A stretch of DNA of 55,678 nucleotides. Source: Gammaproteobacteria bacterium. Lineage in GTDB: Bacteria > Pseudomonadota > Gammaproteobacteria > JACCYU01. The notes under the pieces are model-generated. The model saw only the letters and a list, made by a program, of their open reading frames with translations, was not told the DNA's origin and made no database searches. A program made the position numbers and the translations under genes. This document shows positions 5,983 to 33,723 of the stretch, one piece after another. How positions within the stretch are numbered: position 1 is the first letter of the stretch; every line of letters starts with the position of its first letter. The DNA is taken from NCBI GenBank assembly GCA_013696315.1, contig JACCYU010000078.1, positions 1 through 55,678 of the forward strand, read 5' to 3'.

Positions 5983-6036
5983 CTATTCCAGCGCGCGGCC
6001 GCGCGCTGGGTATCGGTCTCACGTGTTGCAAGCCGT

Positions 6037-7326
6037 ATGGTGACAGGCTTATCCACGCAAGTTGGCTGGCAGTCGCGGGCGCAGGCTCCCGTTGACGTTA
6101 CGGCCGCAGGCGTCGTTTTTCTCTTCCCCGTGCTGGCCGTAACGGCGCCCCATGGCGCCACCGGCACCTTCGGGGTCCTGTTCGCCTTGGGGCTAGTGTT
6201 TGGCTGGCAGGGTTGGAGGCAATTGTATCGCTGGGAAAAGCAGGTGCTGACCGGCTTCCTGGCTTACGCCGCTACCGTGGGTTTGAGCATGTTGATCGCG
6301 AGCGAACACTTGGCCGATGCTTTCGACGGTTACAGCAAGCATCTGCGATTCGTGGCATTTGTGCCGATCTATTTGATGACGCGGCGCTTCGGTCTCGATC
6401 TGTCGCGTCCGCTGATCACCGGCATCGTGGCGGGTCTGTTCGTCATGTGCGCGGTCGTCGTGAATCAACGTTATGCGTTAGGCATCGAGCGGCCCGGCGG
6501 CAGTCGCGATCCGGTGCAGTTCGCCGACGTGCTGATGCTCTGCACCGTACTGGCGGGGCTGGCGATGGTCACCCTGCGCGCGCGCGCCTGGCAGAATATA
6601 TTGGGTGCGGTCGCAATCGGCGCCGGCCTGTATGCCAGCTACCTTTCGTTGACGCGCAACGCGTGGCTGCTGGTGCCGATCGTGTTCATTCTGATGCTGG
6701 CCCATGAGCGCCGGCATATGACGCGGTTACGCTCGTTACTCCTGGCCGGTAGTTTCGTGGTGCTGTGTGTGCTCTGCTTACACCCGCGTTCGCTCGTCTT
6801 CGAGGGTTTCCAGTCGGGGTACCAGGACATCGAGCTGTATATGGAGTCCCCGGGCAAATTCAGTTCGTGGGGTCTGCGGCTCAATATGTGGCGCAACGCC
6901 CTGATCATCGGTAGCGATGAGCCGTGGTTCGGTACCGGCTTGGGAGACTATGACGAAGCCGCGGGCGAACTGCTGGCAAGCGGCACGTCCTATTCGCAAG
7001 ATCCAATGCTCCTGGAGCAGGCGCACAACGCCTTTATTCACACGTTTGCCGAGAGTGGTGTTTTCGCCTTGTTAGCCTTCACCGCCGGTCTGTTGGTGAC
7101 GCCGCTGCTGGCGTTCGCCCGTCACTGGGGCACCCGCCGGGAGCACGGCAGCAGCTTTGCCGTCCTTGGCGGGATGACAGTGACGCTCGCCTTCGCCATC
7201 TTCGGTATCGGCCACGCGTGGATGGGCAGTAACAATTTCATCAGTATCTATCTCCTATTCATGCTGGTGTTTCTATCCAGCCTGGCGGTCGCCGAGCATC
7301 GGGCGGCAGCGGATCGGCGGGGATGA
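6037..7326 (+). CDS. O-antigen ligase family membrane protein (Wzy_C/WaaL-like)
   Basis: 429 aa, polytopic. It has a periplasmic loop with the ligase-type motif HNAFIHTFAESGVFALLAF. It sits in an LPS gene cluster. Confidence 0.8.
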   Translation: MVTGLSTQVGWQSRAQAPVDVTAAGVVFLFPVLAVTAPHGATGTFGVLFALGLVFGWQGWRQLYRWEKQVLTGFLAYAATVGLSMLIASEHLADAFDGYSKHLRFVAFVPIYLMTRRFGLDLSRPLITGIVAGLFVMCAVVVNQRYALGIERPGGSRDPVQFADVLMLCTVLAGLAMVTLRARAWQNILGAVAIGAGLYASYLSLTRNAWLLVPIVFILMLAHERRHMTRLRSLLLAGSFVVLCVLCLHPRSLVFEGFQSGYQDIELYMESPGKFSSWGLRLNMWRNALIIGSDEPWFGTGLGDYDEAAGELLASGTSYSQDPMLLEQAHNAFIHTFAESGVFALLAFTAGLLVTPLLAFARHWGTRREHGSSFAVLGGMTVTLAFAIFGIGHAWMGSNNFISIYLLFMLVFLSSLAVAEHRAAADRRG

Positions 7327-7859
7327 TGCATCCGGAGGGCGCCGTCCTGGACCTCGGCTGCGGCGACAACAAGTATCCGGGCAGCGTCGGTGTCGATCAC
7401 TATCCTTTCGACGGCGTGGATCTGGTTGCGAACCTGGACCACACACCCTGGCCGCTGGCTGCTGATGGCTACGACCACATCATCGTGAGCCACCTGATCG
7501 AGCACGTGACAGACATTCCGGCTTTCATGAACGAGGTGCATCGCGTTGGCCGACACGGGGCGCTGGTGGAGGTCACGACGCCGCATTTCTCCTCCCATGA
7601 TTCCTACCAGGACCCGACGCATCGCTGGCATCTGGGCACGCTGTGGCCCCAGATATTCTGCCAGGGTTATCTGCGCAGCCGGGTCGCGCCCTTCAGTATG
7701 GTCTCGGTGGATGTCAGCTTCGGAAAGAACCTGCGCTACTGGTTTCCAAAGCTCGCAATCAGGGCCAAGGGCCTGGGGTGGTGGGAAAAGAATTATGCTT
7801 TCGTTTATCCCGGGCGCGACATGATCACCCGCTTACGAGTGGAAAAGCCCGCGGTTTGA
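7323..7859 (+). CDS. class I SAM-dependent methyltransferase
   Basis: 178 aa with motif I VLDLGCGDN and a Methyltransf_11-like core. ATGA start/stop overlap with the ligase gene. Confidence 0.75.
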   Translation: MMHPEGAVLDLGCGDNKYPGSVGVDHYPFDGVDLVANLDHTPWPLAADGYDHIIVSHLIEHVTDIPAFMNEVHRVGRHGALVEVTTPHFSSHDSYQDPTHRWHLGTLWPQIFCQGYLRSRVAPFSMVSVDVSFGKNLRYWFPKLAIRAKGLGWWEKNYAFVYPGRDMITRLRVEKPAV

Positions 7860-7878
7860 CGTCGGGCCATTTCGCGCC

Positions 7879-8970
7879 ATGCGCCTGTGCCTGGAGTTAA
7901 CCGCCGTATGCCGTCCCGTACGCACCGGCATCGCTCGCTATGCCGAGCATCTGGCGCGGGCAATGGTCGCGGAAGTCGCCGCCGGCGACCGTGCCGATAC
8001 CATTGCCTGCGCCTATCGTCTCTCGCGTTGGCCGCGGCGTCACCTGCGACTGTCGTTGGCGGAGATAAGGTCAATCTGGATTCAGGAACCCTGGTGGCCC
8101 GTGCGGCCTGCTTTCGACCTCGTCCACGGGCTAGACGCGCGCGTGCCAGACTGGAAACACGTCAAAAAGGTCGCTACGGTGCATGATCTATTTTCGCTGC
8201 ATCCCGAGGCGCAAACCCCGGAGGATGCAAGGGAGCGCACCTTGGCCCGGTACCGGTGGCTGGCGCGCATCAGCGATCGGATCATCTGCCCCAGCGAGAG
8301 CACGCGCTCGGATTTTCTAGCCAGGTTCGAGTTTCCACCCGACAGCGTCGAAGTGATCCATCTGGGGGTCGAACCGGGCTTTGCCGCGCCCGCTCCGCGC
8401 GCGCTTGCGCGCTGGCGGCGCGAGCAGGGCTTCGAGCGCGACTATATTCTGTTCGTCGGAGAGTTCGGGCGGCGCAAGAATCTGGCCCGGCTGCTGCGCG
8501 CCTATATACGCTCCGGATTGAGCTCGGCGTACGAGCTGGTTTACGTCGGCCACGACCCGGGCGGCATGCGCGACGGATTCGCGCGAATCATCAATGCTGG
8601 TGGCGTCGCCTCGCGTGTCAGGTTCCCCGGCTACATGACGGGGGCAAACCTGAATTGTCTTTACGCGGCCGCCAGCGCGTTTGCGTTTCCCTCCTTATAT
8701 GAGGGCTTCGGCCTGCCGGTGCTGGAGGCCATGGCCTGTGGCACGCCGGTGCTGACATCGAACCTGAGCGCGACCGCCGAACTCGGCCGCGAGCACGCCG
8801 TGCTGGTGGATCCCTATTCGGAAGCGAGCATCGCAGAGGGATTGTTAAAGGCCGTTAACGTGCCGCTACATGCCCGGCGGGCGGCGATGATATATTCCAG
8901 AAGCTTTACCTGGGCGGAGACCGCGCGAAAGACACACGCGACTTATCGGCAGGCGCTGGGTCGGCATTAG
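7879..8970 (+). CDS. glycosyltransferase family 4 (GT-B, retaining)
   Basis: 363 aa with the E-x7-E region PSLYEGFGLPVLEAMACGTPVLTSN. Confidence 0.85.
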   Translation: MRLCLELTAVCRPVRTGIARYAEHLARAMVAEVAAGDRADTIACAYRLSRWPRRHLRLSLAEIRSIWIQEPWWPVRPAFDLVHGLDARVPDWKHVKKVATVHDLFSLHPEAQTPEDARERTLARYRWLARISDRIICPSESTRSDFLARFEFPPDSVEVIHLGVEPGFAAPAPRALARWRREQGFERDYILFVGEFGRRKNLARLLRAYIRSGLSSAYELVYVGHDPGGMRDGFARIINAGGVASRVRFPGYMTGANLNCLYAAASAFAFPSLYEGFGLPVLEAMACGTPVLTSNLSATAELGREHAVLVDPYSEASIAEGLLKAVNVPLHARRAAMIYSRSFTWAETARKTHATYRQALGRH

Positions 8971-9163: not shown

Positions 9164-10216
9164 TTATGACGTGCCAAACGTCCGCTTGAAACTGCTAAGG
9201 AACCGCTGAATTTTTATGATCGCCGCGGCTGCCCGGTCGAGGTCAATTGCGCTCATGTCGTGGTCATCAGCGTGCGGCGACGGCGAGAAGGCGAGCCGTC
9301 TGGATGCGTCATTTATCGTTTGCCAGCGCAGCGCGGTCGAGGATTGGCGGCGCGGATAGAACGCCGCGGTCGGGCGGTTCAGCGCGCCGGCGATGTGCAA
9401 TGGCCCGGTGCTGCCGCTGATGAACAGATCGGCAAACGCGATACGGCGCGCGTAATTCACTAGCCCCTCGCGCGAATCGAAAACCACGTGCGCACAGCCG
9501 GCAATCGATGCGGCCAGCTCCCGCGCCCGCGAAAGTTCGCCGGGCCCGGCGCACAACACGAAGACATTGCCATCGTTAGAGGCAAGCCTGGTTGCCAGCG
9601 TGGCGTATTGCGGGATTGAAAGATTCCTGGCCGAGCCGCCGCTGCCGGCATGGATGAAAACCAGCCGCGCATGGTAATCGAAGCCATGTTGCGCCAGTAG
9701 ATCCGCGCGCGCCGCGGCGATCTGCTCGCTGCCGAACTGCAAATAAGGCGGCGCCGCGGGCGGCTTAGGAAGGCGATTCCAAAGGTTCAGCAAATGCTTG
9801 ACCAGATCGACATTGTAGGCGAACTCAGGCTTCTCCGAGCGCGATCGTCGTTGGGTCAAGCGTTGATTGTAGAAAATCTGGGCAAGCTTGGTCGCAGGCG
9901 CGATGCGCACCGGAATCCCCGCGCGCCAGGCGGCCAGGCCGACACGAGAAGTGGAAAATAAAGTTACGATCGCGTCGTAGGCGTTATCGCTGAGCGTCCG
10001 CGTCAGCGCGGAGCCCCGCGGGTCTTCTGCCGGATCGACCACCACGCGGTCAATCCACGGACAGTTTACCGCCAGTGGGCGGGTATACTCCGGCACCAGC
10101 GCGTCGATCCGGCAATCCGGCAGGCTGGTTTTTAACAGCGCAAACGCCGGCCAGGCGAGCATGAAATCGCCGAGCTTGTCGTTGCGAACCACCAGCACCT
10201 TGTGGGTCGGCATCAA
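9164..10216 (-). CDS. glycosyltransferase family 9 (LPS heptosyltransferase family)
   Basis: 350 aa. N-terminus KVLVVRNDKLGDFMLAWPAFALLK, and C-terminal GSTGPLHIAGAL typical of GT9. Confidence 0.8.
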   Translation of the reverse strand: MMPTHKVLVVRNDKLGDFMLAWPAFALLKTSLPDCRIDALVPEYTRPLAVNCPWIDRVVVDPAEDPRGSALTRTLSDNAYDAIVTLFSTSRVGLAAWRAGIPVRIAPATKLAQIFYNQRLTQRRSRSEKPEFAYNVDLVKHLLNLWNRLPKPPAAPPYLQFGSEQIAAARADLLAQHGFDYHARLVFIHAGSGGSARNLSIPQYATLATRLASNDGNVFVLCAGPGELSRARELAASIAGCAHVVFDSREGLVNYARRIAFADLFISGSTGPLHIAGALNRPTAAFYPRRQSSTALRWQTINDASRRLAFSPSPHADDHDMSAIDLDRAAAAIIKIQRFLSSFKRTFGTS

Positions 10217-10346
10217 ACCAGAGTAGCTGATGGAGTATGCGAATCCTAGAGATGTGTCCGTCGCCGGACCAGGGAGGCCTGGAGTTTTCTGCCGGCGCCA
10301 CGGCCGGGGACCTGGCGTGCCACGAACACGGTGTTACCTTAGATTC

Positions 10347-10589
10347 ATGGCCGAATATCGCTTTACTGAATATTTTAACGTACAAGTCCTCCGCAAGCGG
10401 CCATTCCTCAAAAAGGAGTGGTGCATTTACGTTCTGGAAAATGCGGTGCGCGCTGAGCCCCAAGAGCACAATCGATTTCGCTTCTGGGCGGCAGTGCCCG
10501 CGCTTGGCGGCCGATGCTTGAGGGTTATCACGCTTGGGGATAAGGTACCTATTCATAACGCTTTCCCGGTCCGAAAGTTCAAGCCATGA
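10347..10589 (+). CDS. DUF4258-like small protein (putative toxin of a DUF4258/DUF2283 pair)
   Basis: Internal ATG 10347 of track ORF 10230..10589: MAEYRFTEYFNVQVLRKRPFLKKEWC...GGRCLRVITLGDKVPIHNAFPVRKFKP. The L-R-V-(I/V)-T and IHNAF ending match my memory of this family. 4-nt ATGA overlap with the next gene. Confidence 0.6.
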   Translation: MAEYRFTEYFNVQVLRKRPFLKKEWCIYVLENAVRAEPQEHNRFRFWAAVPALGGRCLRVITLGDKVPIHNAFPVRKFKP

Positions 10590-10804
10590 AACTCAATTAC
10601 TATCCTGAAACGGATTCGCTCTATATCGATCTCTCCGAACAGCTCAGCTCAGAGAGCCGGGAGATCTCGGAGGGTGTCGTGCTTGATTATGACGCCCGGG
10701 GAAACCTCGTTGGTATCGACATCGACAATGCCAGCACCAAGGTTGAGCTGAAAGAACTCATCCTCAGCAAGCTACCGGGAAAGGTCGAAATGGTGGCCGC
10801 CTGA
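10586..10804 (+). CDS. DUF2283 domain protein (putative antitoxin partner)
   Basis: 72 aa. MKLNYYPETDSLYIDLSE...VLDYDARGNLVGIDIDNAS is the canonical DUF2283 pattern. Confidence 0.8.
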   Translation: MKLNYYPETDSLYIDLSEQLSSESREISEGVVLDYDARGNLVGIDIDNASTKVELKELILSKLPGKVEMVAA

Positions 10805-11063
10805 CATCGCGCTCTACGGCCGGCTGTCGGTGAGGTCGACGTCATGATCTATGGCGCCGCGCGCTGGCATCGGCATATCGCGAGTCAGATAACGGCAAGT
10901 CGGCGGCGTGAAGGCGTAATTATGTCGCGGGCTGTCTGTAGCCGAGATCGGCCGCTAAAGCTATTCAACATGTAGTTGCAGAGCATGTGGAGGATGCCCA
11001 TCCGTACCAGGTTCGACAAGTGCGAGCGGTGGTTCTGAAATACCACTTAGCGAGTGAACTGTA

Positions 11064-11276
11064 ATGTATCGATACGAGACAATTATCTAATGGAGCGAGG
11101 AAGATCAGTCGTTTATTGCGGAGGCGCCAGAGTTGCCGGGTTGCATGGCGCATGGAGCGTCTCAAGAAGCTGCTTTGGCGAATGCGAAAGATGCAATTCA
11201 ATTGTGGCTGGACACCGCGAAGGAATTCGGCGATCCAATACCAGAACCTAAAGGCCGGCGCCTGATCTATGCTTAA
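11064..11276 (+). pseudogene. hicB: HicB-family antitoxin with an in-frame TAA at codon 9
   Basis: My own translation gives MYRYETII*WSEEDQSFIAEAPELPGCMAHGASQEAALANAKDAIQLWLDTAKEFGDPIPEPKGRRLIYA*. The TAA at 11088-11090 sits where the family has Tyr (IIYWSEEDQ). Confidence 0.7.
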
Positions 11277-11348
11277 AGCACTGCCGGGTGCGAGGACTCG
11301 TGCATCAGTATAGATTCGATATTACGAAAGCATCACCGACGACAGGCT

Positions 11349-11555
11349 ATGCATATCCTGACTATTTCTTCCAAGTTCCAGGTCGTTATCCGTAAAGAAG
11401 TTCGCGAATCTCTCAAGCTCCCTCCCGGCCAGAAGGTTCAAATCGTCCTGTTGGAAAACCGGACCGAGCTTATTCCCGTGCGCCCGCTCACGGAGATGAA
11501 GGGCTTTCTCAAAGGCATCGATACCGACGTTCCGAGAGAGCAAGACAGGACGTGA
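11349..11555 (+). CDS. vapB: AbrB/MazE/SpoVT-type antitoxin (VapB-like)
   Basis: 68 aa. MHILTISSKFQVVIRKEVRESLKLPPGQKVQIV is a typical SpoVT-AbrB swapped-hairpin N-terminus. It lies directly upstream of a PIN-like ORF. Confidence 0.8.
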   Translation: MHILTISSKFQVVIRKEVRESLKLPPGQKVQIVLLENRTELIPVRPLTEMKGFLKGIDTDVPREQDRT

Positions 11556-11921
11556 ATGTTGTCGTCGGGTTGGCTTGAGTATTTCGCATCTGGGCCTAAT
11601 GCCGATTTTCTTCGCAACCGCCATAAAGCCGACGGAGGAACTTCTTGTCCCGACTGCAAGCCTCTACGAAATTTTTTTAAACGTATTCTTCAGCAGCGCG
11701 GTGAAGGCGACGCCTTGCAAGCGGTTGCGCTGATGCAGCAAGGCATTGTTGTCGTGCCCACGGCTTCCCTGGCCTTAACCACCGCGCGGCTGAGCTGTGG
11801 GGAGTTGGCCTTGGCTCTCGTCTGGCTGATCATAGGTCAGCCTAAAATTGCAGGTGAAGAATTTATTCTGCTCGTGACCGGAATGATTGATATGACCGTT
11901 GGCTTAGACGACACTCTATAG
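11552..11921 (+). pseudogene. vapC: PIN-domain VapC-like toxin, apparently decayed
   Basis: SGWLEYFASGPNAD and KRILQQRGEGDALQAVALMQQG match a VapC subfamily. The GTG(11552) frame stops after 8 codons. The ATG(11556) frame lacks the N-terminal catalytic Asp. Between T-runs 11606-11609 and 11672-11678 the family-like sequence FFATAIKPTEELLVPTASLYEIF is in the +1 frame. The C-terminal third is unlike the family. Confidence 0.6.
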
Positions 11922-12183
11922 CTCAACTTGTCGTCTATATTTGGTAGGAGGTTTTGTGGCCTAAACAGCAACGGAAAGCTCGCATTCCAAAATTATGCGC
12001 CTATATGCGTGTTTCTTGGTATTGGTGTGTCGTAGATAAGGCACCTTTGCAGTAGAAGATGTACCACATCGAGCTAATTTCAACGCCTGTATTGCGGAAA
12101 TGCGGGATCGAGAACGTACCGTCGATAAAAATAATAAATGCGGCCAGTAGCGGAGAGGGGCTTGAAGGCGGTGGAGAACCGTA

Positions 12184-13692
12184 GTGGGTTTTGCGGAGTT
12201 GCTACATGAAGTCGACCGGTTAGCGGCCTGCGGTCAGTTGCGGGCAGCGGCCGAAGTCTTGGAGGAGTCAATCGCCCAATCGGGCCGCGATCCGCGTCTT
12301 CTGCGGGCACTTGGCCGGTTGTATCTGCTTGAGCATCGCGCCCACAATGCTGTCAGTATCCTACAAGAAGCCCTCGAACTTCAGCAGCGTGGTCGAATTC
12401 ACGCGTTTCAGGTCGGGCACGAGGAAGTGTCTGCTTTGGACATGGATTACTTAGCAGAACAGGATAGCGCCGCAAGTGGGGTGCGGCTTCAGGAACACGT
12501 CAGCCAGCAGATCCTCGATCAGTCGTCAGATCAGCCCGTAAGTCGGGGCTTGATCGAAATCCAACGCGGTCCGGACACGCTAAGTGTTTCCAATTATCCT
12601 CCGCAACCTGCCTCGCGTTTCGACAGCACCCCCGGTGACCACCAGAGCGATTCACCGAACGACACTTCGTGCCTGCAACAAGACCTCGATGTGCCTTTCG
12701 AGAATGAGCGTCAAATGCGGATCGCGGAGACAAAGATGGCCGCCCTCAGCCTTGATGCATTCAAGGAGGCACTTTACCCGCAAGGCGAGCTCGACTTTGA
12801 GGTTGATGACGAACAAGTCCTGCCCGCATTCGACGATGTTGAATTTCAAGAGTTTCCTGAAGAGCTTGCGTCTCAGAGCGCGTTCTACTACCCGTCCGAC
12901 CAGACCGACGAAGTTGATCCCTACCTAGTCGACATTGAAGAGCTGATCGACGACATCTCAGAAGACGCTGATGAGGAACCTTTACCCCGGGGCGTCACGC
13001 GAGAGCAACGCGCGTTACAAGTCGCCGCAGAATTTCTTGAGCGAGTCGGCTGGGATCGAGAGCACCTACGTCCTTTGCAAGACTTCTTCGTTCGATACGG
13101 CTGGTCCATGGCGCGCGTCGCGCTGGAGAGAGAAATTGAAAAAGGACTCGATCCAGAAGAGTTCCCCATTGCCCTCAGACTGAGAGAAATCTGGGCGGAA
13201 AACGAGCGCTACTGGACGGCATTCTTCTATCCGCCTCAAGCCAAAGATTGCTACCGAGTCATGTCATGGTCGATGGCGATTCTGATCGTTCGCTCCGTCC
13301 CCGGTATTCCGTTCGAGGAGGAACTTGAGCTGTTTGTCGAGAACGAGTTCGATACCTGGTACAGCAGCGACAGTCTTCGTCGTCAGTTCTGCGCGTTCAT
13401 CAAGTATCTCTATTTCCGCGTCGCAGGCGGCAATTGGACGCTGCACCCTTTCTGTCCGGTCAACTTCCCAGAACCTCGTTCAGAAGATTTTGATGATGCG
13501 TCTGATCTAGGATTGACGGATTTGGTGGGTGCCGAAAGACGAAGCATCTTGATGCGATTGGGGGTGCGAATCCATCAATCGAGTACTGATCTAGATTCTC
13601 GTTACACTGGGCATCCGCACATATTGGCGGCAATAGCGCAGGGCGACTACACCGGTCGTGACCATATTACACGGAGCCTAGAAGATGAATGA
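12184..13692 (+). CDS. hypothetical protein: helical/TPR-like N-terminus, extremely acidic middle, unrecognised C-terminal domain
   Basis: 502-aa ORF with a GTG start, preceded by 262 bp of AT-rich non-coding DNA. Residues 201-266 have 26 D/E and no K/R. Its stop overlaps the start of the SNF2 gene by 8 nt (ATGAATGA). Confidence 0.7.
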   Translation: MGFAELLHEVDRLAACGQLRAAAEVLEESIAQSGRDPRLLRALGRLYLLEHRAHNAVSILQEALELQQRGRIHAFQVGHEEVSALDMDYLAEQDSAASGVRLQEHVSQQILDQSSDQPVSRGLIEIQRGPDTLSVSNYPPQPASRFDSTPGDHQSDSPNDTSCLQQDLDVPFENERQMRIAETKMAALSLDAFKEALYPQGELDFEVDDEQVLPAFDDVEFQEFPEELASQSAFYYPSDQTDEVDPYLVDIEELIDDISEDADEEPLPRGVTREQRALQVAAEFLERVGWDREHLRPLQDFFVRYGWSMARVALEREIEKGLDPEEFPIALRLREIWAENERYWTAFFYPPQAKDCYRVMSWSMAILIVRSVPGIPFEEELELFVENEFDTWYSSDSLRRQFCAFIKYLYFRVAGGNWTLHPFCPVNFPEPRSEDFDDASDLGLTDLVGAERRSILMRLGVRIHQSSTDLDSRYTGHPHILAAIAQGDYTGRDHITRSLEDE

Positions 13693-16504
13693 CCTACCAC
13701 TACCAGTATCCGGTTGCTGGGTGCGTGATCGAGAGGAGGGTCGCGCAGACCGACTTGGTATAGTCCGCATGACCGTTCCGCATGATAACGACCCGAAGGC
13801 CAAGGTCGAGTGGTTGAAACCGGATCGCCGGCAATCAATAGTGCCCGTTTCCCAGCTCAGCTGCGGGTTCGGGCTCCGCATGGAGGTGCTTGAAGCGGGC
13901 GGTGGGACTGGGCGCCAGTCGCTGGGTTACGGAGGGATCATCGGCCTGCGAAAACTGGGCAACCGCGAGCAGGTGCTTGTCGACTTCCCGGAGACAGGCA
14001 AGCGCGCATGGCTGCCATATCAGAACCTACGACAGGTCAAGGGCCCGCGTCACCGGTTCATTACGGGTGATACTGGAGACAAAGACTCTCCTGAGCGATT
14101 CAGGCTGAAGGTGCTGGCTCACGCTCTAGAGATTTGGAACGAGAACACCGGAGCTCTGTCGCACCTCGACATAGACCCGCTGCCCCACCAAATCCACCTC
14201 GTTCATCACATTCTCGCCTCGGGCAATCTCAATTGGCTTATCGCCGACGACGTCGGTCTCGGCAAGACGATCGAAATGGGGATGCTGCTGGCCGCGCTGC
14301 AGCAGCGCGAACTGTTAGGTCGAGTGCTACTCATCACGCCGGCTGGTCTCACTAAGCAATGGAAGGACGAGCTCTACTACAAGTTTGGTTTTGAAGGCTT
14401 TGAAATCTACGGCGAGGACTTTTTCATCAACGAGCCTCGCCAGTGGAAGATGCACGACTTCGTCATCGGCTCCATGGATAAACTCAAGCAGGAGACCGAT
14501 CTAAACAGTCTTCTGCATGCGCCGAATTGGGACCTGGTGATCGTGGATGAGGGCCACCGTCTGAGCCGCAGGCAATATGGCATGCGCTACGACTACTCGG
14601 AGCGATTCCAACTTGCACAGGTACTCCGAAGCAGAACCCGCTCGATTGTCCTGCTTACTGCCACGCCGCATCAAGGTATGCAGGACAAATTTATCGCGCT
14701 ACTCGAATTGCTTCGTCCAGAACGCAAAGAGGAGTTACAAACGCTCACGCTTAACCCTGAGATCATTAGCGAGATGGTCTACCGAAATTACAAAGCCGAT
14801 GTGACCGATGCCGTGGGCAACTTCGTCTTTAAGGGCAAGCAGACTCGCACAATTCGAGTGCATCCCAGCGAACAGGCTGTGACGTTCGACCGAGCCCTGC
14901 AGAAGTACCTTCGGCGCGGCTATGCGGCAGGCGGAAACACCGGCGGCACGGCCGGGCGCGCAATTGGGTTCGTGATGACCATCTACCGCAAGCTCGCCGC
15001 GTCTAGTTCGGCGGCGATACTCAACGCGCTCCTAAGACGTAGAGAGCGACTGATTAATGCAAGCGGTGGACAAACTGAAGAGCTGCCGATTGACGAACGT
15101 TATGCCGGCGAATGGGAAGAGCAACAAGAAGCTACGGGGCGAGCATTTTTTGAAGGCGAACTTGCGCTATTAGACCAGCTCATTCAGGGCGCCAAGAGCC
15201 TAAAGCAGCATGACAATAAGCTGTGTGGATTCTGCGACCAGATCATCGGCCAGATCTTGGTCAGCAACCCAAAGGAAAGGGTTTTGATCTTCACTGAGTA
15301 TCGCGGCACTCAGGACTATCTTCGGGAAGAACTCGTGGAGCGGTATGGTGAGCAATGCGTGAGGCTCATACACGGCTCGATGGATCACGAGGAGCGGCGA
15401 CAAGCAATCCAGTATTTCGAGGCAGAGGGCCAGTTCCTGATCTCAACGGAGGCGGGCGGCGAAGGAATCAACCTCCAGCGCCGCTGCCACGTGATGGTGA
15501 ACTACGACTTGCCATGGAATCCTATGCGGCTCGTTCAGCGCGTCGGTCGTCTCTACCGATATGGCCAGGAGATGCCCGTCGTTGTGTTCAACCTCCATGT
15601 AACCGGGACGGTGGACGAAGACATCATTGATCTCATGTATCGACGGCTAAACGCGGTCGTGGCCGATCTGGCGACGGTGTCTCGGCACGAATATAACGAG
15701 CGGCTGGCAGAAGACGTCCTCGGCGAGGTGGCGGAACTGCTCGACGTCGGGACCGTATTAGTGGCAGCAACGGAATCGGGCATTCAGCGGACTCAGCAAC
15801 GTATCGATGAAGCCCTTAAAAAAGCCCGCGGGTCAGCACAGAAGCAGCGCGAGCTATTTGAGCATGCCGCGCGGTACGATGAGGAAGAGTTGGCTGAGAA
15901 TTTACAGATCACTGATCAACACGTCCAAGCGTTTGTGTTCGGCATGTTTAGGCTTATAGGCGTGGAGATCATAGAGATGCTCCACAACAACAAAGTGCTC
16001 AAGATTCGCCTGCCGGACGCCATCCGAAACGAGCTCGGCATGAAGGCGGCGCGTATGGACATTACCTTCGACCGCCTGCTGGCGTCGAATCGCGCTAACA
16101 CTACAATGATGGACCTGACTGCACCGTTCATGACCTATCTAGTGCGCGTGGCAAAGTCCTACGACTTCGGGGGACAATGCGCAGTCATTAAGGCGCTTAC
16201 CGGTGAGTCTGTTCTCACGGCATTATTGCGCTGGCAGGACGATCAGGGTCGGCGCATGCGGCAGTCTTTTAGCGTGTTCAGGCTGGACGGACAATCCGTG
16301 GAAACCAACCCTGCCGAGTTTGGCGTCTGGCTGCTGAGTGAAGCCGTGTCAGGCCATGCTGAGGTCACCCGAGAGCGAAACGAGTCCCTGATGAAACTGG
16401 CCGAGCGTGCCGCCAACGAGGCTCTTGCAGCCGCCAGTAATCGGTATTTGCATCCCGAGAATCTTCAGTGGCTGGCAGGCGGTTGGTTAGCTGTATCAGA
16501 ATAA
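13685..16504 (+). CDS. SNF2-family ATPase/helicase with RapA(HepA)-like architecture
   Basis: 939 aa. Motifs seen: LPHQ; Walker A ADDVGLGKT (14255-14269 covers GLGKT); DEGH (14546-14557); LLTATPHQG; FLISTEAGGEGINLQ; NYDLPWNPMRLVQRVGRLYRYGQ. The N-terminal ~120 aa form two Tudor/SH3-like repeats, with LGYGGIIGL...VLVDFPETGKRAWLPYQNLRQV resembling the RapA N-terminus. The C-terminal region contains ITFDR, as RapA does. Confidence 0.88.
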   Translation: MNDLPLPVSGCWVRDREEGRADRLGIVRMTVPHDNDPKAKVEWLKPDRRQSIVPVSQLSCGFGLRMEVLEAGGGTGRQSLGYGGIIGLRKLGNREQVLVDFPETGKRAWLPYQNLRQVKGPRHRFITGDTGDKDSPERFRLKVLAHALEIWNENTGALSHLDIDPLPHQIHLVHHILASGNLNWLIADDVGLGKTIEMGMLLAALQQRELLGRVLLITPAGLTKQWKDELYYKFGFEGFEIYGEDFFINEPRQWKMHDFVIGSMDKLKQETDLNSLLHAPNWDLVIVDEGHRLSRRQYGMRYDYSERFQLAQVLRSRTRSIVLLTATPHQGMQDKFIALLELLRPERKEELQTLTLNPEIISEMVYRNYKADVTDAVGNFVFKGKQTRTIRVHPSEQAVTFDRALQKYLRRGYAAGGNTGGTAGRAIGFVMTIYRKLAASSSAAILNALLRRRERLINASGGQTEELPIDERYAGEWEEQQEATGRAFFEGELALLDQLIQGAKSLKQHDNKLCGFCDQIIGQILVSNPKERVLIFTEYRGTQDYLREELVERYGEQCVRLIHGSMDHEERRQAIQYFEAEGQFLISTEAGGEGINLQRRCHVMVNYDLPWNPMRLVQRVGRLYRYGQEMPVVVFNLHVTGTVDEDIIDLMYRRLNAVVADLATVSRHEYNERLAEDVLGEVAELLDVGTVLVAATESGIQRTQQRIDEALKKARGSAQKQRELFEHAARYDEEELAENLQITDQHVQAFVFGMFRLIGVEIIEMLHNNKVLKIRLPDAIRNELGMKAARMDITFDRLLASNRANTTMMDLTAPFMTYLVRVAKSYDFGGQCAVIKALTGESVLTALLRWQDDQGRRMRQSFSVFRLDGQSVETNPAEFGVWLLSEAVSGHAEVTRERNESLMKLAERAANEALAAASNRYLHPENLQWLAGGWLAVSE

Positions 16505-26438: not shown

Positions 26439-26579
26439 GCGTGTTCTAAGTTATCGTAGCTAGGGTCGCTAAGATTACGGACACCGGCCGCCGCAGACAA
26501 GTCCGCGGGCGCGGCCCGCCTGCCGCCGGCGCCGCGCGTGGTTGCAAAGCGCGGAAATTTTCTATAACTTCAGCCGCAT

Positions 26580-26659
26580 CGAGACTAGGGGTGCCCGGTA
26601 ATGGGCTGAGAGATACCCTTGGAACCTGAACCGGATTGTACCGGCGGAGGGAAGGCTCG
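26580..26659 (+). promoter_or_regulatory. TPP (THI-box) riboswitch
   Basis: CGAGACUAGGGGUGCC..GGGCUGAGAGAUACCCUUGGAACCUGAACCGGAUUGUACCGGCGGAGGGAAGGCUCG. All THI-box hallmarks are present (GGGGUGC, CUGAGA, ACCCUU.GAACCUGA, GGGAA). The P1 stem is CGAG/CUCG. It lies directly upstream of thiC. Confidence 0.92.
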
Positions 26660-26662
26660 TGA

Positions 26663-28642
<1,980 letters not shown>

Positions 28643-29907: not shown

Positions 29908-30786
29908 CTAACCGGCCAGCAAGTCTTTCGCTTGGTTGATTTTGGCGGCCAGGTAATTGGTGCCACCGCGATCCGGGTGCATTTTCTGCATCAAGCGTCG
30001 GTGCGCGTCGGTGACGGTCTTGGCATCGGCGCCGGCCTTGAGGCCCAGTATTTCGTAGGCTTCCTCGTGGCTCATGCCTTTGCCCATGCCTCCACCATTG
30101 GCTTTGCTCTGTCTGGAGTCTGCGCGGTCTTGTTTTTCCGTGCGATCGGATTTGCTCTCTGACTTGTTATCCGCATGGGCTTCGCCGGATTCCTGCCTGG
30201 CGCTGGTGCCGTGCGCCTGCTCGATGTAGGCCGCCAGCAGTGCCGCCGATTCGGCGTCGCGGCGGGTGTACTGGGCGTGCAGCGCCTGCAACTTTTTGAG
30301 CGTCAGTTCGCTCAAGTGCCCGCCGCTGTGGACGCCGCTCACGATTTTGCCGCGCATTTCGCCGGTCTGCTCGCTTATCGACATCCGCAGGTAACGTGTC
30401 TGGACATTCGTGTAGCCATTATTGCCCCCGCTATCGTCCGATGATTTCGCCTTTGACGCGCGCTTGCGCGAGGACTTGCGCGATCGGGCGCGGGCGGGTG
30501 GGGGCGCTTTTGGTTTCGCGACCGCAGCGCGCCACAACAGGGGCAGCAGCCGGACCACGATGGGCAGAAGAGCGCCGATGACGGCGAATACCCAGTGCAG
30601 CGATCCCGAAAATACCATCGCGAGCAGCGCCACAAGAGCGATGACGATGCCCGCCTGCGAGAGGAATAGCCGGAATTTGCCGGGCGGCTGCCGTCCGACC
30701 ATACTGACCAGCAGAAAGATGGACAGCAGAATTAAAATGCCGACGGGAATGCGCCACCGATAAACTTCCGTGAGAAAAAATTCCAT
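29908..30786 (-). CDS. membrane-anchored J-domain (DnaJ-like) protein
   Basis: Internal ATG 30786 of track ORF 29908..30972. It has 2-3 N-terminal transmembrane helices and a basic linker. The C-terminal J domain reads AYEILGLKAGADAKTVTDAHRRLMQKMHPDRGG (HPD motif). Confidence 0.8.
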   Translation of the reverse strand: MEFFLTEVYRWRIPVGILILLSIFLLVSMVGRQPPGKFRLFLSQAGIVIALVALLAMVFSGSLHWVFAVIGALLPIVVRLLPLLWRAAVAKPKAPPPARARSRKSSRKRASKAKSSDDSGGNNGYTNVQTRYLRMSISEQTGEMRGKIVSGVHSGGHLSELTLKKLQALHAQYTRRDAESAALLAAYIEQAHGTSARQESGEAHADNKSESKSDRTEKQDRADSRQSKANGGGMGKGMSHEEAYEILGLKAGADAKTVTDAHRRLMQKMHPDRGGTNYLAAKINQAKDLLAG

Positions 30787-31162
30787 ATTCGTCGTTGCCC
30801 TTAACGGATCGCGGTTCGCGCGATACAAAAAGCCCTGGCTTGCTAGCCAGCGCGTCGATAAATATGCAGAATAATAATGGATTTTCCTGGAGTTCCGAGT
30901 TGCCGTGCGGCATACGGTGCCAGGCTGCCTAATCGTCGATGTTAGCGTAGGCGGGCATTTTCGTCGTCCCACCTCTTCGGGTGTCGATAAACTGATACAG
31001 CTTACGCACCGCTTGGTATCCGTTTAGTCTACCCAGCGTTTGGGGCAGGCGTAAAGGCAGGCGCCGTTATGCCTGGCCCAGGCGGGCGGAGAATAGTACA
31101 TGAAATGGCGCCGCGGCATCCACAGACGCATGCCTGGCGGAGCGCGGCGTTACACTGACTGC

Positions 31163-31213: not shown

Positions 31214-32185
31214 ATGCAAGATTTCAATGCGAATTACAGCCGGCAGATCATGTTCCGGCTGGCCGTGGCGGCAATACTGCTGCTCGTGGTGATGTTTCTG
31301 TGCCGTCGGTTTATCTTCGATTTTTACATTGGCGGTCAGGTCACGATCGCCGGTTATATCATCAACAGCGCGACCCTGACCTTGTTCCTGGCGGGGCTGA
31401 TCGCGATCGTCGCGGGGCTGCGTCACTATTCGCGCGAGGAAGCCGCGCTGGCCAGATTCATGCGCTCGCTGGACGACGAGCAGCGCGATTTAACGGCGGG
31501 CGTAAACCCGCGCAGCATCATCCATAGACGCTATGCCGCCATTTTAAGAATCAGCAAGCAGAACGCGCCGGTCGATCACGGCGCGCTGACCGCGCTGCTG
31601 CTGGCCGATGAGAGCAAGCGATTGTCGTTCCCGCGTTTTGTCAACAATATTCTGATCCTGATGGGCGTATTCGGCACCATTGTTGGTCTGGCGATCGCGC
31701 TTGTGGGTGCGGCCGATCTGCTCGAAGCGGAACAGAACTTAGGCAGCATGGATGTGCTGATCCACGGCATGTCGGTCGCGCCGGCCACGACCATCATCGC
31801 GATCATCTGTTATGTGTTCACCGGTTACTTTTATATCCGCCTGACCGATGCGCAGACACACGTCATCAGCGGCGTCGAGCAGGTGACCCAGCTTTACCTG
31901 CTGCCACGGTTTTCCCGCAACGCCGATTCGATCATGCACGAGATCGCGCATCTGGTCGATCAACTCAGGCAGACCGCGGAGAGCATGCGCGGCAGTCAGA
32001 CCGAATACGCCGAGGCCGGTATCCGCCTGCGCGAAACGGTCAACGACTACGCGCAGGTCGGTCACCGCATGAGCATGATGCTGGCTGAACTGGACTCGCG
32101 CATGAGCGGCATGACCGGCGACGTGCGCACGATCAAAAGCATGCTGCGCGATGGATTCCGCCTGCCGGCCGGCGATTCGCGTTAA
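31214..32185 (+). CDS. MotA/TolQ/ExbB-like proton-channel protein with an extended helical C-terminal tail
   Basis: 323 aa with 2+2 transmembrane topology. The TM3/TM4 block FVNNILILMGVFGTIVGLAIAL...GMSVAPATTIIAIICYVFTGYFY resembles the MotA_ExbB core. About 110 aa of helical tail follow TM4. Confidence 0.65.
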   Translation: MQDFNANYSRQIMFRLAVAAILLLVVMFLCRRFIFDFYIGGQVTIAGYIINSATLTLFLAGLIAIVAGLRHYSREEAALARFMRSLDDEQRDLTAGVNPRSIIHRRYAAILRISKQNAPVDHGALTALLLADESKRLSFPRFVNNILILMGVFGTIVGLAIALVGAADLLEAEQNLGSMDVLIHGMSVAPATTIIAIICYVFTGYFYIRLTDAQTHVISGVEQVTQLYLLPRFSRNADSIMHEIAHLVDQLRQTAESMRGSQTEYAEAGIRLRETVNDYAQVGHRMSMMLAELDSRMSGMTGDVRTIKSMLRDGFRLPAGDSR

Positions 32186-33723
32186 TGAGCCGGGGCTTTG
32201 TCGATCTGCGTGTAGCGCACGGCGACGCGCTATCCGAACACAACGCGGTATGGCCCTCGTTCACCGACATCATGACGGTGGTGGTCATGATCTTTCTGTT
32301 GACCAGCATGGTGTTGATCATGCGCAACTGGGAACTGGTCGAGACTCTGCGCGGCAGCATCGAGGCCGAGCAACGGGCTGCCGAGACGGCGCGCGACAGA
32401 ACGCAAGCTCAGGCTGCGGTGGAACAGCAACTCGTGCGCGCGCAAGCGGAAATCGCGGATCTTAAGGTGCGACTCGAGCGCGCCGCCAGTGAAGCGCAGC
32501 GCGACGCACAACTACTGGCCGAGCGCGACAGCAGCCTGTCGTCTGCACGCTCCGCGGTCAAGCGACTGTCCGCGACTTTACTGTCGTCGTATGACGAAAC
32601 GGATTCGCTGCGCGCCGAGCGCGCGCAACTGTTAAGCGCGGTCGCGCGGACAGAGTCGGAACTCGAATCCTCTAGGGCAAGTGCCGCGGATCTGTCGGGC
32701 AATCTGGCTTCGTCGCGGCAGCGGGTGAGCGCGCTGGAGCAGGAGGCGCGGCAGGCCGCGGCACGGCGCGAGGAATTGCAGACGGCTTTCGAGGCGCAGC
32801 GCGCCGACTCCAGCCGCCTCCAGGAAGCGTTACAGTCATCCCGCCAGCAGGTCGGCGCGCTGGAATCAACGCTCGAGCAGGCACGGCAGCGCGGCGGTCA
32901 AATGCAGGCGCAATACGCCGCGCGCCAGACCGAGTTGCAGGCCGCGGAGTCGAGAATCGCGGAGCTTGCGCAGTCGCTGGAGGCTTTCACCGCACGGGTC
33001 AGCACCCTTGAACAGGCGAACGAACAAGTGCGCGCCGAGCGCGCGGCGTTGCGGGATTCGCTGGCAGGCGGCGAAACTGACCTGATCGCGGCGGAGGCGC
33101 GAATCGCGCAGCTTTCCCGGGAACTCGAAGCGGCGTCGGAGACCGAGCGCGCCATGCAGAGCCGGGTCGAGCAGGCGCGCACCGAGACCTTAGAACTCCG
33201 GGCGGCCTACGATCGTCAGCAAAGCCGTGTGAGCGCGGCGCGGGAACGGTCCGCGGAACTCGATATGACCTTGGGCGCTCGCACGCAAGAATTGCGCGAC
33301 ATTCGTCAGGAGCGCGTGGAAGCCGTGCAGCAAAGCCAGCAAAGCGAACAGCGGCTGACGGAATTGCGGGGCGATTTCGACACCTTGCGGGTCAAGTACG
33401 ACCGGCTGATTCAGCCCGCGCGCAGCGCCGACGGCAAACACGTCGTGGAAGTGCGTTACGACAAGGAACCCGATGGCTACCGCATCGGTTTGAAAGACAG
33501 CGCGGATCAGGCATTTAGTACCGTGAGCGGTTCGCAGATGATGCGCCGGCTGGACGAACTCAAGGCACGTTACGGCAATGATTTGTACGTGCGCGTTATC
33601 ATCCCCGACAACAGTGGGCTGTCCTACAACGAGGCCTGGGATTTTACCAACGACGTCCTCAGCCGTTACGATTATTACTATCAGACTGCCGGGCGCGAAC
33701 CTGGCGCGGAGGCCGTTGAGTAA
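32185..33723 (+). CDS. MotB-like membrane anchor fused to about 350 aa of coiled coil and a C-terminal globular domain
   Basis: 512 aa, with a TAATG overlap with the upstream gene. N-terminus VWPSFTDIMTVVVMIFLLT is like the MotB/ExbD plug-TM segment, with Asp28 at 32266-32268. Residues ~50-405 are A/E/Q/R-rich heptad-like sequence. The C-terminal ~100 aa (VEVRYDKEPDGYRIGL...YVRVIIPDNSGLSYNEAWDF) are not clearly OmpA-like. Confidence 0.6.
   Translation: MSRGFVDLRVAHGDALSEHNAVWPSFTDIMTVVVMIFLLTSMVLIMRNWELVETLRGSIEAEQRAAETARDRTQAQAAVEQQLVRAQAEIADLKVRLERAASEAQRDAQLLAERDSSLSSARSAVKRLSATLLSSYDETDSLRAERAQLLSAVARTESELESSRASAADLSGNLASSRQRVSALEQEARQAAARREELQTAFEAQRADSSRLQEALQSSRQQVGALESTLEQARQRGGQMQAQYAARQTELQAAESRIAELAQSLEAFTARVSTLEQANEQVRAERAALRDSLAGGETDLIAAEARIAQLSRELEAASETERAMQSRVEQARTETLELRAAYDRQQSRVSAARERSAELDMTLGARTQELRDIRQERVEAVQQSQQSEQRLTELRGDFDTLRVKYDRLIQPARSADGKHVVEVRYDKEPDGYRIGLKDSADQAFSTVSGSQMMRRLDELKARYGNDLYVRVIIPDNSGLSYNEAWDFTNDVLSRYDYYYQTAGREPGAEAVE

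Follow-up and report, generated by a model that had tools for sequence, protein, structure and literature searches.

We analysed a pair of adjacent genes, here called gene A and gene B, on a stretch of 55,678 nucleotides from a Gammaproteobacteria bacterium (assembly GCA_013696315.1, contig JACCYU010000078.1, positions 1 to 55,678, forward strand); this whole stretch is referred to below as the window. A previous reading of the sequence alone (the first-pass annotation) had described the pair as an orphan MotA/MotB-like stator whose B subunit carries a long coiled coil. The two genes and the features recognised in them are as follows, where aa stands for amino acids, ORF for open reading frame, TM for transmembrane and pLDDT for the predicted local distance difference test score of AlphaFold2.

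31214-32185, forward strand: gene A, 323 aa in the ORF listing, a channel subunit of the MotA/ExbB/TolQ superfamily
31631..31843, forward strand: TM3-loop-TM4 core of A (residues 140-210), the most conserved part of the protein and the region of its Pfam MotA_ExbB match
31844..32182, forward strand: helical cytoplasmic tail of A (residues 211-323), with AlphaFold2 helices 176-233 and 239-315 and an invariant end, G314-F-R-L317
32183-32187, forward strand: TAATG stop/start overlap that couples A to B
32185-33723, forward strand: gene B, 512 aa in the ORF listing, an axle-type subunit
32248..32322, forward strand: WPSFTD motif and single TM helix of B (residues 22-46), with the codon of Asp28 at 32266-32268
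32323..33384, forward strand: membrane-proximal segment and coiled coil of B (residues 47-400), about 49 heptads in a single register
33385..33720, forward strand: C-terminal globular head of B (residues 401-512), with an AlphaFold2 core of pLDDT above 90 and 22 invariant columns

The coupling of the two genes was borne out by the sequence, in which the stop codon TAA of A (32183-32185) and the start codon ATG of B (32185-32187) were both found within GCGTTAATGAGC, and the overlap is therefore real. The start codons of the two genes matched the N-termini of their homologues (MxDFxANYSR for A and MxxGFxDLR for B), and the spacing from A to B was -4 to +5 bases in most of the related loci.

Hydropathy revealed four hydrophobic segments in A, at about residues 8-40, 45-71, 141-172 and 180-206. 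No lysine or arginine was present in the short loops 33-43 and 166-180, while 12 such residues were counted in the loop 69-139 and 13 in the tail 211-323. The hydropathy and the loop charges thus indicated a protein of two plus two TM helices with both termini in the cytoplasm, which agreed with the topology drawn in the first-pass annotation. An AlphaFold2 model was built on 82 family sequences (mean pLDDT 79.7) and contained helices at residues 8-29, 45-87, 122-171, 176-233 and 239-315, the last of which supported the earlier proposal of a helical cytoplasmic tail of about 110 aa. Measured from the HGMS to the GFRL motif, this tail was 116 aa long in 75 of 85 sequences and 14 aa longer than that in the clade of the window. 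Extensions of 32, 64 and 96 aa were seen in the loci L024, L074 and L071, respectively, all from uncultured Thiotrichaceae, and suggest a 32-aa repeat.

When A was searched with the Pfam profile MotA_ExbB (PF01618), as the first-pass annotation had proposed, residues 133-218 were matched with 19.3 bits, below the cut-off of 22.9 bits, and orthologues passed this cut-off (P0146, 71 % identical, 28.4 bits; P0190, 48 % identical, 26.1 bits). A Foldseek comparison of the model with the PDB returned only ExbB, TolQ, PomA, MotA or ZorA chains as the top 39 matches, with a probability of 1.00 in all but two and a target-normalised TM-score of at most 0.62, and the nearest folds were those of ExbB and TolQ. 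The columns invariant in the 82 sequences were G151, V152, G154, T155, H184, M186, A189, T193 and Y200, giving the core motifs G151-V-(F)-G154-T155 and H184-(G)-M186...T193...Y200. In an hhalign comparison with E. coli TolQ, GVFGT155 of A was placed on GLFGT145 of TolQ (expect value, E, 0.007), with the Thr of TM4 aligned one residue off. The passing orthologues and the Foldseek matches upheld the claimed likeness to MotA and ExbB: A belongs to the MotA/ExbB/TolQ superfamily and to none of its named families.

For gene B, 1196 homologues were found. The protein has a single hydrophobic segment (residues 21-52) that opens with V22-W-P-S-F-T-D28; residues 22-40 read VWPSFTDIMTVVVMIFLLT and include Asp28, which lies at the cytoplasmic end of the TM helix. 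The stretch W23-P-S-F-T-D28 was invariant in 25 diverse homologues, and an Asp followed WPxFx in 222 of the 223 homologues that have an N-terminus, so that the residue singled out in the first-pass annotation is conserved throughout the family. It is followed by a conserved membrane-proximal segment, RNWELV (N48, W49 and L51 conserved), which sits at the position of the MotB plug. Pfam scans at E up to 1 contained neither MotB_plug (PF13677) nor OmpA (PF00691) for B, the two families named for this search in the earlier annotation, and no ExbD match for the B of the window. On the homologue P0013, Pfam ExbD (PF02472) matched residues 24-48 with 24.4 bits, against a cut-off of 25.4. A profile of the B family was also compared with the sequences of the PDB; outside coiled coils its best matches were 8vvn_B (E 3.2e-5) and 8vvi_A, in the anchor region only, and these are the ZorB chains of type I and type II Zorya (PMC11890865). 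The PADLOC models of ZorB likewise matched the anchor (E 3e-6 to 1e-4, ZorB1 giving 3e-6). The invariant WPSFTD motif and these matches are in keeping with the MotB/ExbD-style N-terminal segment that had been described.

No dedicated family for B or for its head domain was present in Pfam or NCBIfam. The NCBIfam model NF006542 (PRK09039, 'peptidoglycan-binding protein') matched B at residues 20-221 on model positions 13-214 (E 7.8e-7). Since the match covers the anchor and the coiled coil, it suggests a similar N-terminal architecture; however, B reached 28 bits against a cut-off of 388 and is not a member, and the match may largely reflect coiled-coil composition. The matches of B to LmuB and JetC models of PADLOC and to SMC and Rad50 models of NCBIfam were judged to be due to the same composition, as were precomputed Pfam matches such as PF25764 (KIF21A_4th); a further one, PF24161, was absent from rescans. 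In JGI annotations many B homologues (P0003-P0120) carry names such as 'chromosome segregation ATPase', 'septal ring factor EnvC' or 'SbcCD ATPase subunit', and these are most likely mis-annotations from coiled-coil composition.

A channel subunit, an axle with an invariant Asp, the RNWELV segment and translational coupling together point to a motor of the 5:2 type. We regard it as probable, with real room for doubt, that A and B form a two-component, ion-driven membrane motor of the kind represented by MotAB, ExbBD, TolQR and ZorAB, and that they make up a distinct, uncharacterised subfamily with a stalked B. Like MotA-MotB and PomA-PomB, the pair shows a 2+2 TM layout in A, with PomA and MotA among the Foldseek matches, and a B subunit whose TM helix bears the conserved Asp and is followed by a conserved segment at the plug position. 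Unlike MotB, B is devoid of MotB_plug and OmpA domains, the cytoplasmic loop of A is short (about 70 aa), and no flagellar genes lie near the pair.

The anchor matches also raise the question of a relation to Zorya, in which case A and B would be a minimal or degenerate ZorAB anti-phage module, B sensing envelope perturbation, A rotating and the tail of A signalling to unlinked effectors. Consistent with this, the best matches of the B anchor among solved structures were ZorB, many ZorA models matched A weakly (E 3e-4 and weaker), and A, like ZorA, has a helical tail in the cytoplasm after TM4, its tip being conserved. The periplasmic part of ZorB is joined to its TM helix without a flexible linker (PMC11946911), and the coil of B follows its TM helix directly as well. 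However, A stayed far under the curated NCBIfam cut-offs (16 against 500 bits for ZorA_4 and 10.4 against 100 bits for ZorA_2), and the PADLOC ZorA and ZorB matches ranged from E 3e-6 to 0.6 and covered partial regions. The tail of A is about 110 aa long, compared with about 500 aa in E. coli ZorA, where it comprises residues 223-729, extends for about 70 nm and tolerated none of the truncations tested, all of which abolished defence (PMC11946911). ZorB moreover carries an OmpA-like peptidoglycan-binding dimer, whereas B has no peptidoglycan-binding domain, and the A/B pair has its long coiled coil on the other subunit, where it would lie on the other side of the membrane. The genomic context, given below, bears on this explanation too.

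In B the anchor is followed by a long stretch rich in a few residues. Between residues 50 and 400, Ala made up 19 %, Arg 13 %, Glu 13 % and Gln 11 %, with no Pro, and a heptad scan found one register from about residue 64 to residue 400 (about 340 aa); modal B members likewise showed a single continuous register over the whole coil. The coil of about 350 aa reported in the first-pass annotation was thus present, in one register and free of Pro, but such a length proved atypical of the family, whose modal B has about 310 aa. The usual length of B was about 294-326 aa (mode about 305-320 aa), and, aligned with such proteins, the B of the window carries about 200 aa inserted in mid-coil. The modal stalk has about 22 heptads and that of the window 27 more, and coils across the family ranged from about 20 to about 58 heptads.

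The stalk was then described by the spacing from the WPSFTD motif to the head motif PARxxxGK in 186 full-length cluster representatives. The spacings fell at 172, 179, 186, 193, 200, 207, 214 and so on, with a mode of 200 (n=80) and a range of 130-452 aa, and 167 of the 186 left a remainder of 4 on division by 7. An independent set of species-genome loci gave the same phase in 59 of 64. The window (389, equal to 200 + 27 x 7) and its related loci L004 (403) and L006 (452) all kept it, and the insertions and deletions among these three stalks were 7, 7 and 49 aa long. Outside the clade of the window, representatives with spacings above about 330 aa were often off this phase (for example 331, 341, 342, 350, 369, 379 and 421); the coils of such very long variants may be broken or stuttered, or their stalks may be built to another geometry. 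In the expanded coils, the motif SSxxRVSxLE recurred at 49 aa in L004 and L006 and at 42 and 50 aa in the window, and self-identity of the expanded coil peaked at offsets of 49, 98, 147 and 196. The repeat and the peaks indicate expansion by tandem duplication of a seven-heptad unit, and the expansion in the window was built partly from such 49-aa repeats.

Both ends of B were conserved and the middle was variable in sequence and length, as expected of a spacer. A hairpin at Gly237-Gly238 was considered as a family feature and rejected, as the Gly pair was absent from L006 and the insertions and deletions comprised whole heptads. The antiparallel hairpin suggested in the first-pass annotation was accordingly not sustained: no conserved break was found, and changes of spacing by whole heptads argue for a continuous, rigid stalk rather than a hairpin. 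We read the predicted coil as continuous, fixed in register at both ends and rigid, and not as a flexible linker. With the textbook rise of 0.1485 nm per residue of coiled coil, a straight rod would measure about 24.5 nm for the modal stalk and about 52.6 nm for that of the window.

With so much of B taken up by coiled coil (about 20 to about 58 heptads), the protein might be mainly structural, that is, a periplasmic coiled-coil scaffold, tether or spacer with A as its membrane partner and with ion flow inessential. Growth by tandem repeats, here of 49 aa, is a typical trait of fibres with a structural role, and no output partner is known. The near-absolute conservation of Asp28, of WPSFTD, of GxFGT in A and of polar TM4 residues is nevertheless hard to explain without ion coupling, and A, with a mean column identity of 56 %, was more conserved than B. 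We therefore give the structural explanation little chance and retain the motor as the preferred reading.

Among known B subunits, the anchor is continued by a flexible linker plus a peptidoglycan-binding domain in MotB and ZorB and by a small domain in ExbD and TolR, whereas here there is a stalk. Judged by shape, the nearest analogue is the GldM shaft of the GldLM (PorLM) motor, in which the inner dimeric subunit also forms a long, fairly rigid periplasmic shaft; the 18-nm shaft of GldM has been proposed to transmit mechanical energy to components further out (PMC9389320). The two are alike in form: no sequence relationship was detectable, and neither GldL nor GldM appeared in the Pfam scans of A, B and their homologues. 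The GldM shaft consists of four globular domains and not of coiled coil, and GldLM occurs in Bacteroidota with many partner genes, unlike the gammaproteobacterial A/B pair, which has none.

At its C-terminal end, B folds in the AlphaFold2 model into a compact alpha/beta domain with the order strand-strand-strand-helix-strand-helix (beta-beta-beta-alpha-beta-alpha). Conservation within B was highest in this head, where 22 columns were invariant, Tyr and Trp were frequent and the sequence ended in YDYYYQ. That the globular end of about 100 aa is not OmpA-like, as had been noted at first, was confirmed by the missing PF00691 match and by the different predicted topology. Attempts at a fold assignment failed throughout. 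Foldseek against the PDB gave RNase-H-like and uS11 folds at a best E of 0.04, which is not significant, and against the viral structures of BFVD nothing useful; a head-domain profile found nothing relevant among PDB sequences. ExbD or TolR chains were absent both from this profile search (E up to 10) and from the top 50 Foldseek matches. Pfam ExbD was weakly matched in 4 of 22 head domains (best E 0.007), and hhalign of the head with E. coli ExbD was non-significant and in the same register as these weak matches; the comparison with E. coli TolR was not significant either. Neither the window nor 84 related loci contained an ExbD or TolR gene on which a better profile could have been built. 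The strand and helix order of the model is compatible with the ExbD/TolR fold without being diagnostic, and an origin of the head from ExbD or TolR is possible. An exhaustive phmmer search with the head alone found 360 clusters among 1.84 billion representatives. In all 150 matches listed the head formed the C-terminal end of the protein, whose length did not exceed about 540 aa, from which it appears specific to this architecture; the shortest entries among them look like fragments.

The pair was also compared with the Ton and Tol systems. As in ExbB-ExbD and TolQ-TolR, the TM3 motif is GxFGT, B has a single N-terminal TM helix with the Asp near its cytoplasmic end, and the two genes are translationally coupled; the predicted fold of A also matched ExbB and TolQ best. 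The long helical element and small distal domain of B recall domains II and III of TolA (PMC12204202). In contrast, A has four TM helices (2+2) and not three as in ExbB and TolQ, the helical element and distal domain reside within the axle B and not in a separate TonB or TolA outside the ring, and tonB, tolA, tolB and pal were not adjacent in the neighbourhoods examined. The similarity of the head to the periplasmic domain of ExbD and TolR was, as stated, not significant. By analogy, the pair would in overall form come closest to a fused TolR and TolA, or to GldM.

Another explanation is that A and B, as ExbBD or TolQR do, energise an unlinked TM partner outside the ring, with the coil and head of B serving to anchor or regulate. 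The closeness of the A fold to ExbB and TolQ would fit, as would the 24.4 bits of a homologue's anchor on Pfam ExbD and the weak ExbD matches of the four head domains in the expected register. Motor genes working with unlinked or newly recognised transducers have also been discussed (PMC12204202). On the other hand, no conserved TonB, TolA or von Willebrand factor A (vWA)-type gene stood beside the pair in 84 related loci, and the ExbD-like signal of the head is not significant. The long periplasm-crossing element and distal head of B itself make a separate transducer unnecessary, and we consider such an energiser unlikely, preferring a motor whose axle carries its own stalk.

The distribution of the pair was determined by a pattern scan for A relatives in one genome per species, which found them in at least 503 species genomes. 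The best 80 A-bearing genomes were nearly all Gammaproteobacteria assembled from metagenomes, and named carriers included Thiotrichaceae, Ectothiorhodospiraceae, Chromatiales, Thiohalomonadaceae, Sedimenticola and symbionts of lucinid clams. All cluster members inspected were metagenome-assembled entries named 'hypothetical protein'. Two bins, labelled 'Halobacteria archaeon' (L073) and 'Desulfuromonadales' (L055), contained proteins 48-49 % identical to gammaproteobacterial ones, and these contigs are probably mis-binned. B lay directly downstream of A in the same orientation in 76 of 84 loci; in the other eight a complete B ORF was not recovered, several of them having the contig end soon after A. 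The pair named in the first-pass annotation is therefore adjacent wherever the contig permits, and this adjacency, along with the conservation of Asp28, shows that the two genes are not chance ORFs.

The gene context was examined by clustering all ORFs of the 84 loci and by gene tables for the diverged loci L001, L003 and L004. No conserved third gene was found in the 84 loci, and the neighbours were lineage-specific housekeeping genes: thiC in 28 loci (upstream), MlaC in 25, PCMT in 22, a 2-oxoglutarate (2OG)-oxygenase in 20 and TolC in 14, besides TerB and glutaredoxin. MgtC and PilZ neighboured the pair in L001, thiC in L003, and the window's own arrangement recurred in L004. Flagellar, Tol, TonB and Zorya genes were found neither within 10 kb of the pair in L001, L003 and L004 nor among the conserved neighbour clusters, and the designation 'orphan' could thus be kept. 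By the membership tests run, A and B fall outside flagellar MotB, Zorya and GldLM; as to Ton/Tol, tonB, tolA and pal were missing from the surroundings and a likeness of the head to ExbD could not be demonstrated. Pairwise identities co-varied between A and B (r = 0.92) and between A and ThiC (r = 0.71; 25 loci, the pairs not being independent), which fits vertical inheritance.

For the Zorya-like explanation, this context counts as contrary evidence. No zorC, D, E, F or G, nuclease or helicase gene was conserved nearby; 28 of the 84 loci share the chromosomal site by thiC, with divergence that tracks thiC; and no relatives of A or B were found among the viral contigs of IMG/VR or the plasmids of PLSDB. 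The A/B pair, unlike Zorya, comes without effector genes, is chromosomal and position-stable, and was not found on mobile elements. We consider a Zorya-like sensor very improbable. A mobile or defence origin of the module was rejected in view of the missing viral and plasmid relatives and the ordinary guanine-plus-cytosine (GC) content at the locus. Rather than a mobile defence system, the module resembles a housekeeping function of the envelope that is chromosomal and passed on vertically. Literature searches that covered 5:2 motors, the evolution of MotAB, force transducers of the periplasm and Zorya did not turn up this architecture. A survey of MotAB homologues reported many uncharacterised motor homologues (PMC12505986) and a survey of periplasmic force transducers also included such homologues (PMC12204202), the present architecture being described in neither.

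From these data, a mechanism can be proposed for the A/B motor. A would be the channel ring in the inner membrane, a pentamer by analogy, and B its central axle, by analogy a dimer, with the ion-accepting Asp28 on its TM helix. Protonation and deprotonation of Asp28 would drive rotation of A relative to B, the 5:2 stoichiometry and the ion flow being carried over from the characterised motors. The TM helix of B would run directly into a rigid, parallel coiled-coil stalk, which would be periplasmic, judging by the homologous anchor and by where the Asp lies, and this stalk would hold the head at a fixed register, about 24 nm from the inner membrane in the usual protein and up to about 52 nm here if straight. 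The head would most likely bind a conserved component of the envelope, that is, a cell-wall or outer-membrane target; this target, the moving partner and the biological role are conjectural. The stalk may resist torque, so that B is an anchored stator as in MotB and ZorB, or it may carry torque, so that B is a rotating shaft, as proposed for GldM (PMC9389320); the data do not separate these roles. In either case B would combine the axle (TolR/ExbD) with the periplasm-crossing transducer (TolA/TonB) that the Tol and Ton systems divide between proteins. A cytoplasmic partner might dock on the tail of A, whose length is fixed and whose GFRL tip is invariant; alternatively, this tail could serve to anchor the ring.

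Several observations weigh against this interpretation. The A of the window scored below the Pfam MotA_ExbB cut-off (19.3 against 22.9 bits), and the Foldseek E-values of A were modest, from 2e-3 to 6e-2. A HMMER profile of the A family found no MotA or ExbB chain among the PDB sequences, only coiled-coil noise from the tail, so the link to the superfamily rests on Pfam, Foldseek and the motifs, and the A family is a distant branch. Analogy underlies the 5:2 assembly and homology the assignment of the coil to the periplasm, the charges on either side of the TM helix of B showing no informative bias. Stalks differed in length by a factor of about three within the family, a spread that fits poorly with a strict periplasm-spanning ruler, and outside the clade of the window the heptad phase was often lost at spacings above about 330 aa. 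The periplasm is usually about 20-30 nm wide, and a straight stalk of 52 nm exceeds this width. Finally, the head is without an assignable fold or ligand, and no partner gene is known for the pair, which leaves its output undefined.

A bolder proposal is that A and B constitute a new functional class of 5:2 motor, in which the Asp-bearing axle is itself a heptad-exact coiled-coil drive shaft or force transducer that ends in a new type of head. Such a motor would draw on the proton-motive force at the inner membrane and deliver this energy to a conserved cell-wall or outer-membrane target, as a TolR/ExbD plus TolA/TonB fusion with a housekeeping envelope role in mostly uncultured, often sulfur-oxidising Gammaproteobacteria. 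We advance this as a tentative and rather doubtful possibility.

Around the pair, the window contains lipopolysaccharide (LPS)-core genes, tolC and thiC. The two flanking genes named in the first-pass annotation were both recognised by Pfam: a membrane J-domain protein (PF00226, 29.6 bits against a cut-off of 27.8) and a MidA-type methyltransferase (Methyltransf_28, E 7e-60). The J-domain neighbour was restricted to close relatives of the window and was not family-wide. The true start of its 354-aa ORF (29908-30972, reverse strand) is probably further downstream, and in the syntenic locus L004 the same region was called as a 278-aa DnaJ-domain gene and a separate 132-aa gene. A thiamine pyrophosphate (TPP) riboswitch of an ordinary type was detected at 26577-26669 on the forward strand (RF00059, 70.1 bits with a gathering score of 54.3). 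It immediately precedes thiC (26666-28642), which marks thiC as a regulatory unit separate from the A/B pair. A scan for DNA-level features found no significant tandem repeats and no sigma-70-like promoter, and its four terminator-like sites, with 2.8 expected from shuffled controls, were no excess. Elsewhere in the window, a segment at about 10000-16500 had a lower GC content (0.54-0.55, compared with about 0.61 elsewhere). It contains a 502-aa protein without a Pfam match (12184-13692) that overlaps a 939-aa SNF2-family helicase (13685-16504), set among LPS-core genes (Wzy_C ligase, GT4, heptosyltransferase and HldE). The segment was perhaps acquired as an island, or it may represent a gene pair of the defence type. 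An AT skew of -0.194 at 6001-8000 coincided with the gene of an O-antigen-ligase-like membrane protein (6037-7326) and is probably due to the T-rich codon usage of a polytopic membrane protein.

To our knowledge, few classes of 5:2 motor are understood, namely the flagellar stators, Ton, Tol, Agl gliding, GldLM/PorLM and Zorya, and each of them represents a different way of converting ion flow into work. In the A/B family, an axle of the canonical Asp-bearing type is continued by a rigid stalk that evolves in exact heptads and by a head of unassigned fold. The motor core is a familiar one and orphan homologues of it are many; it is the heptad-exact stalk, the head, the wide distribution and the two-gene layout that make this a testable case. 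The 'chromosome segregation ATPase' label on many B homologues is also corrected here as a common mis-annotation. If the pair is a working motor, it would mean that axle and periplasmic transducer can be one polypeptide, and, with its two genes, it would be a simple system in which to find out which part moves, axle or ring, as well as a natural ruler for how mechanical energy crosses the periplasm.

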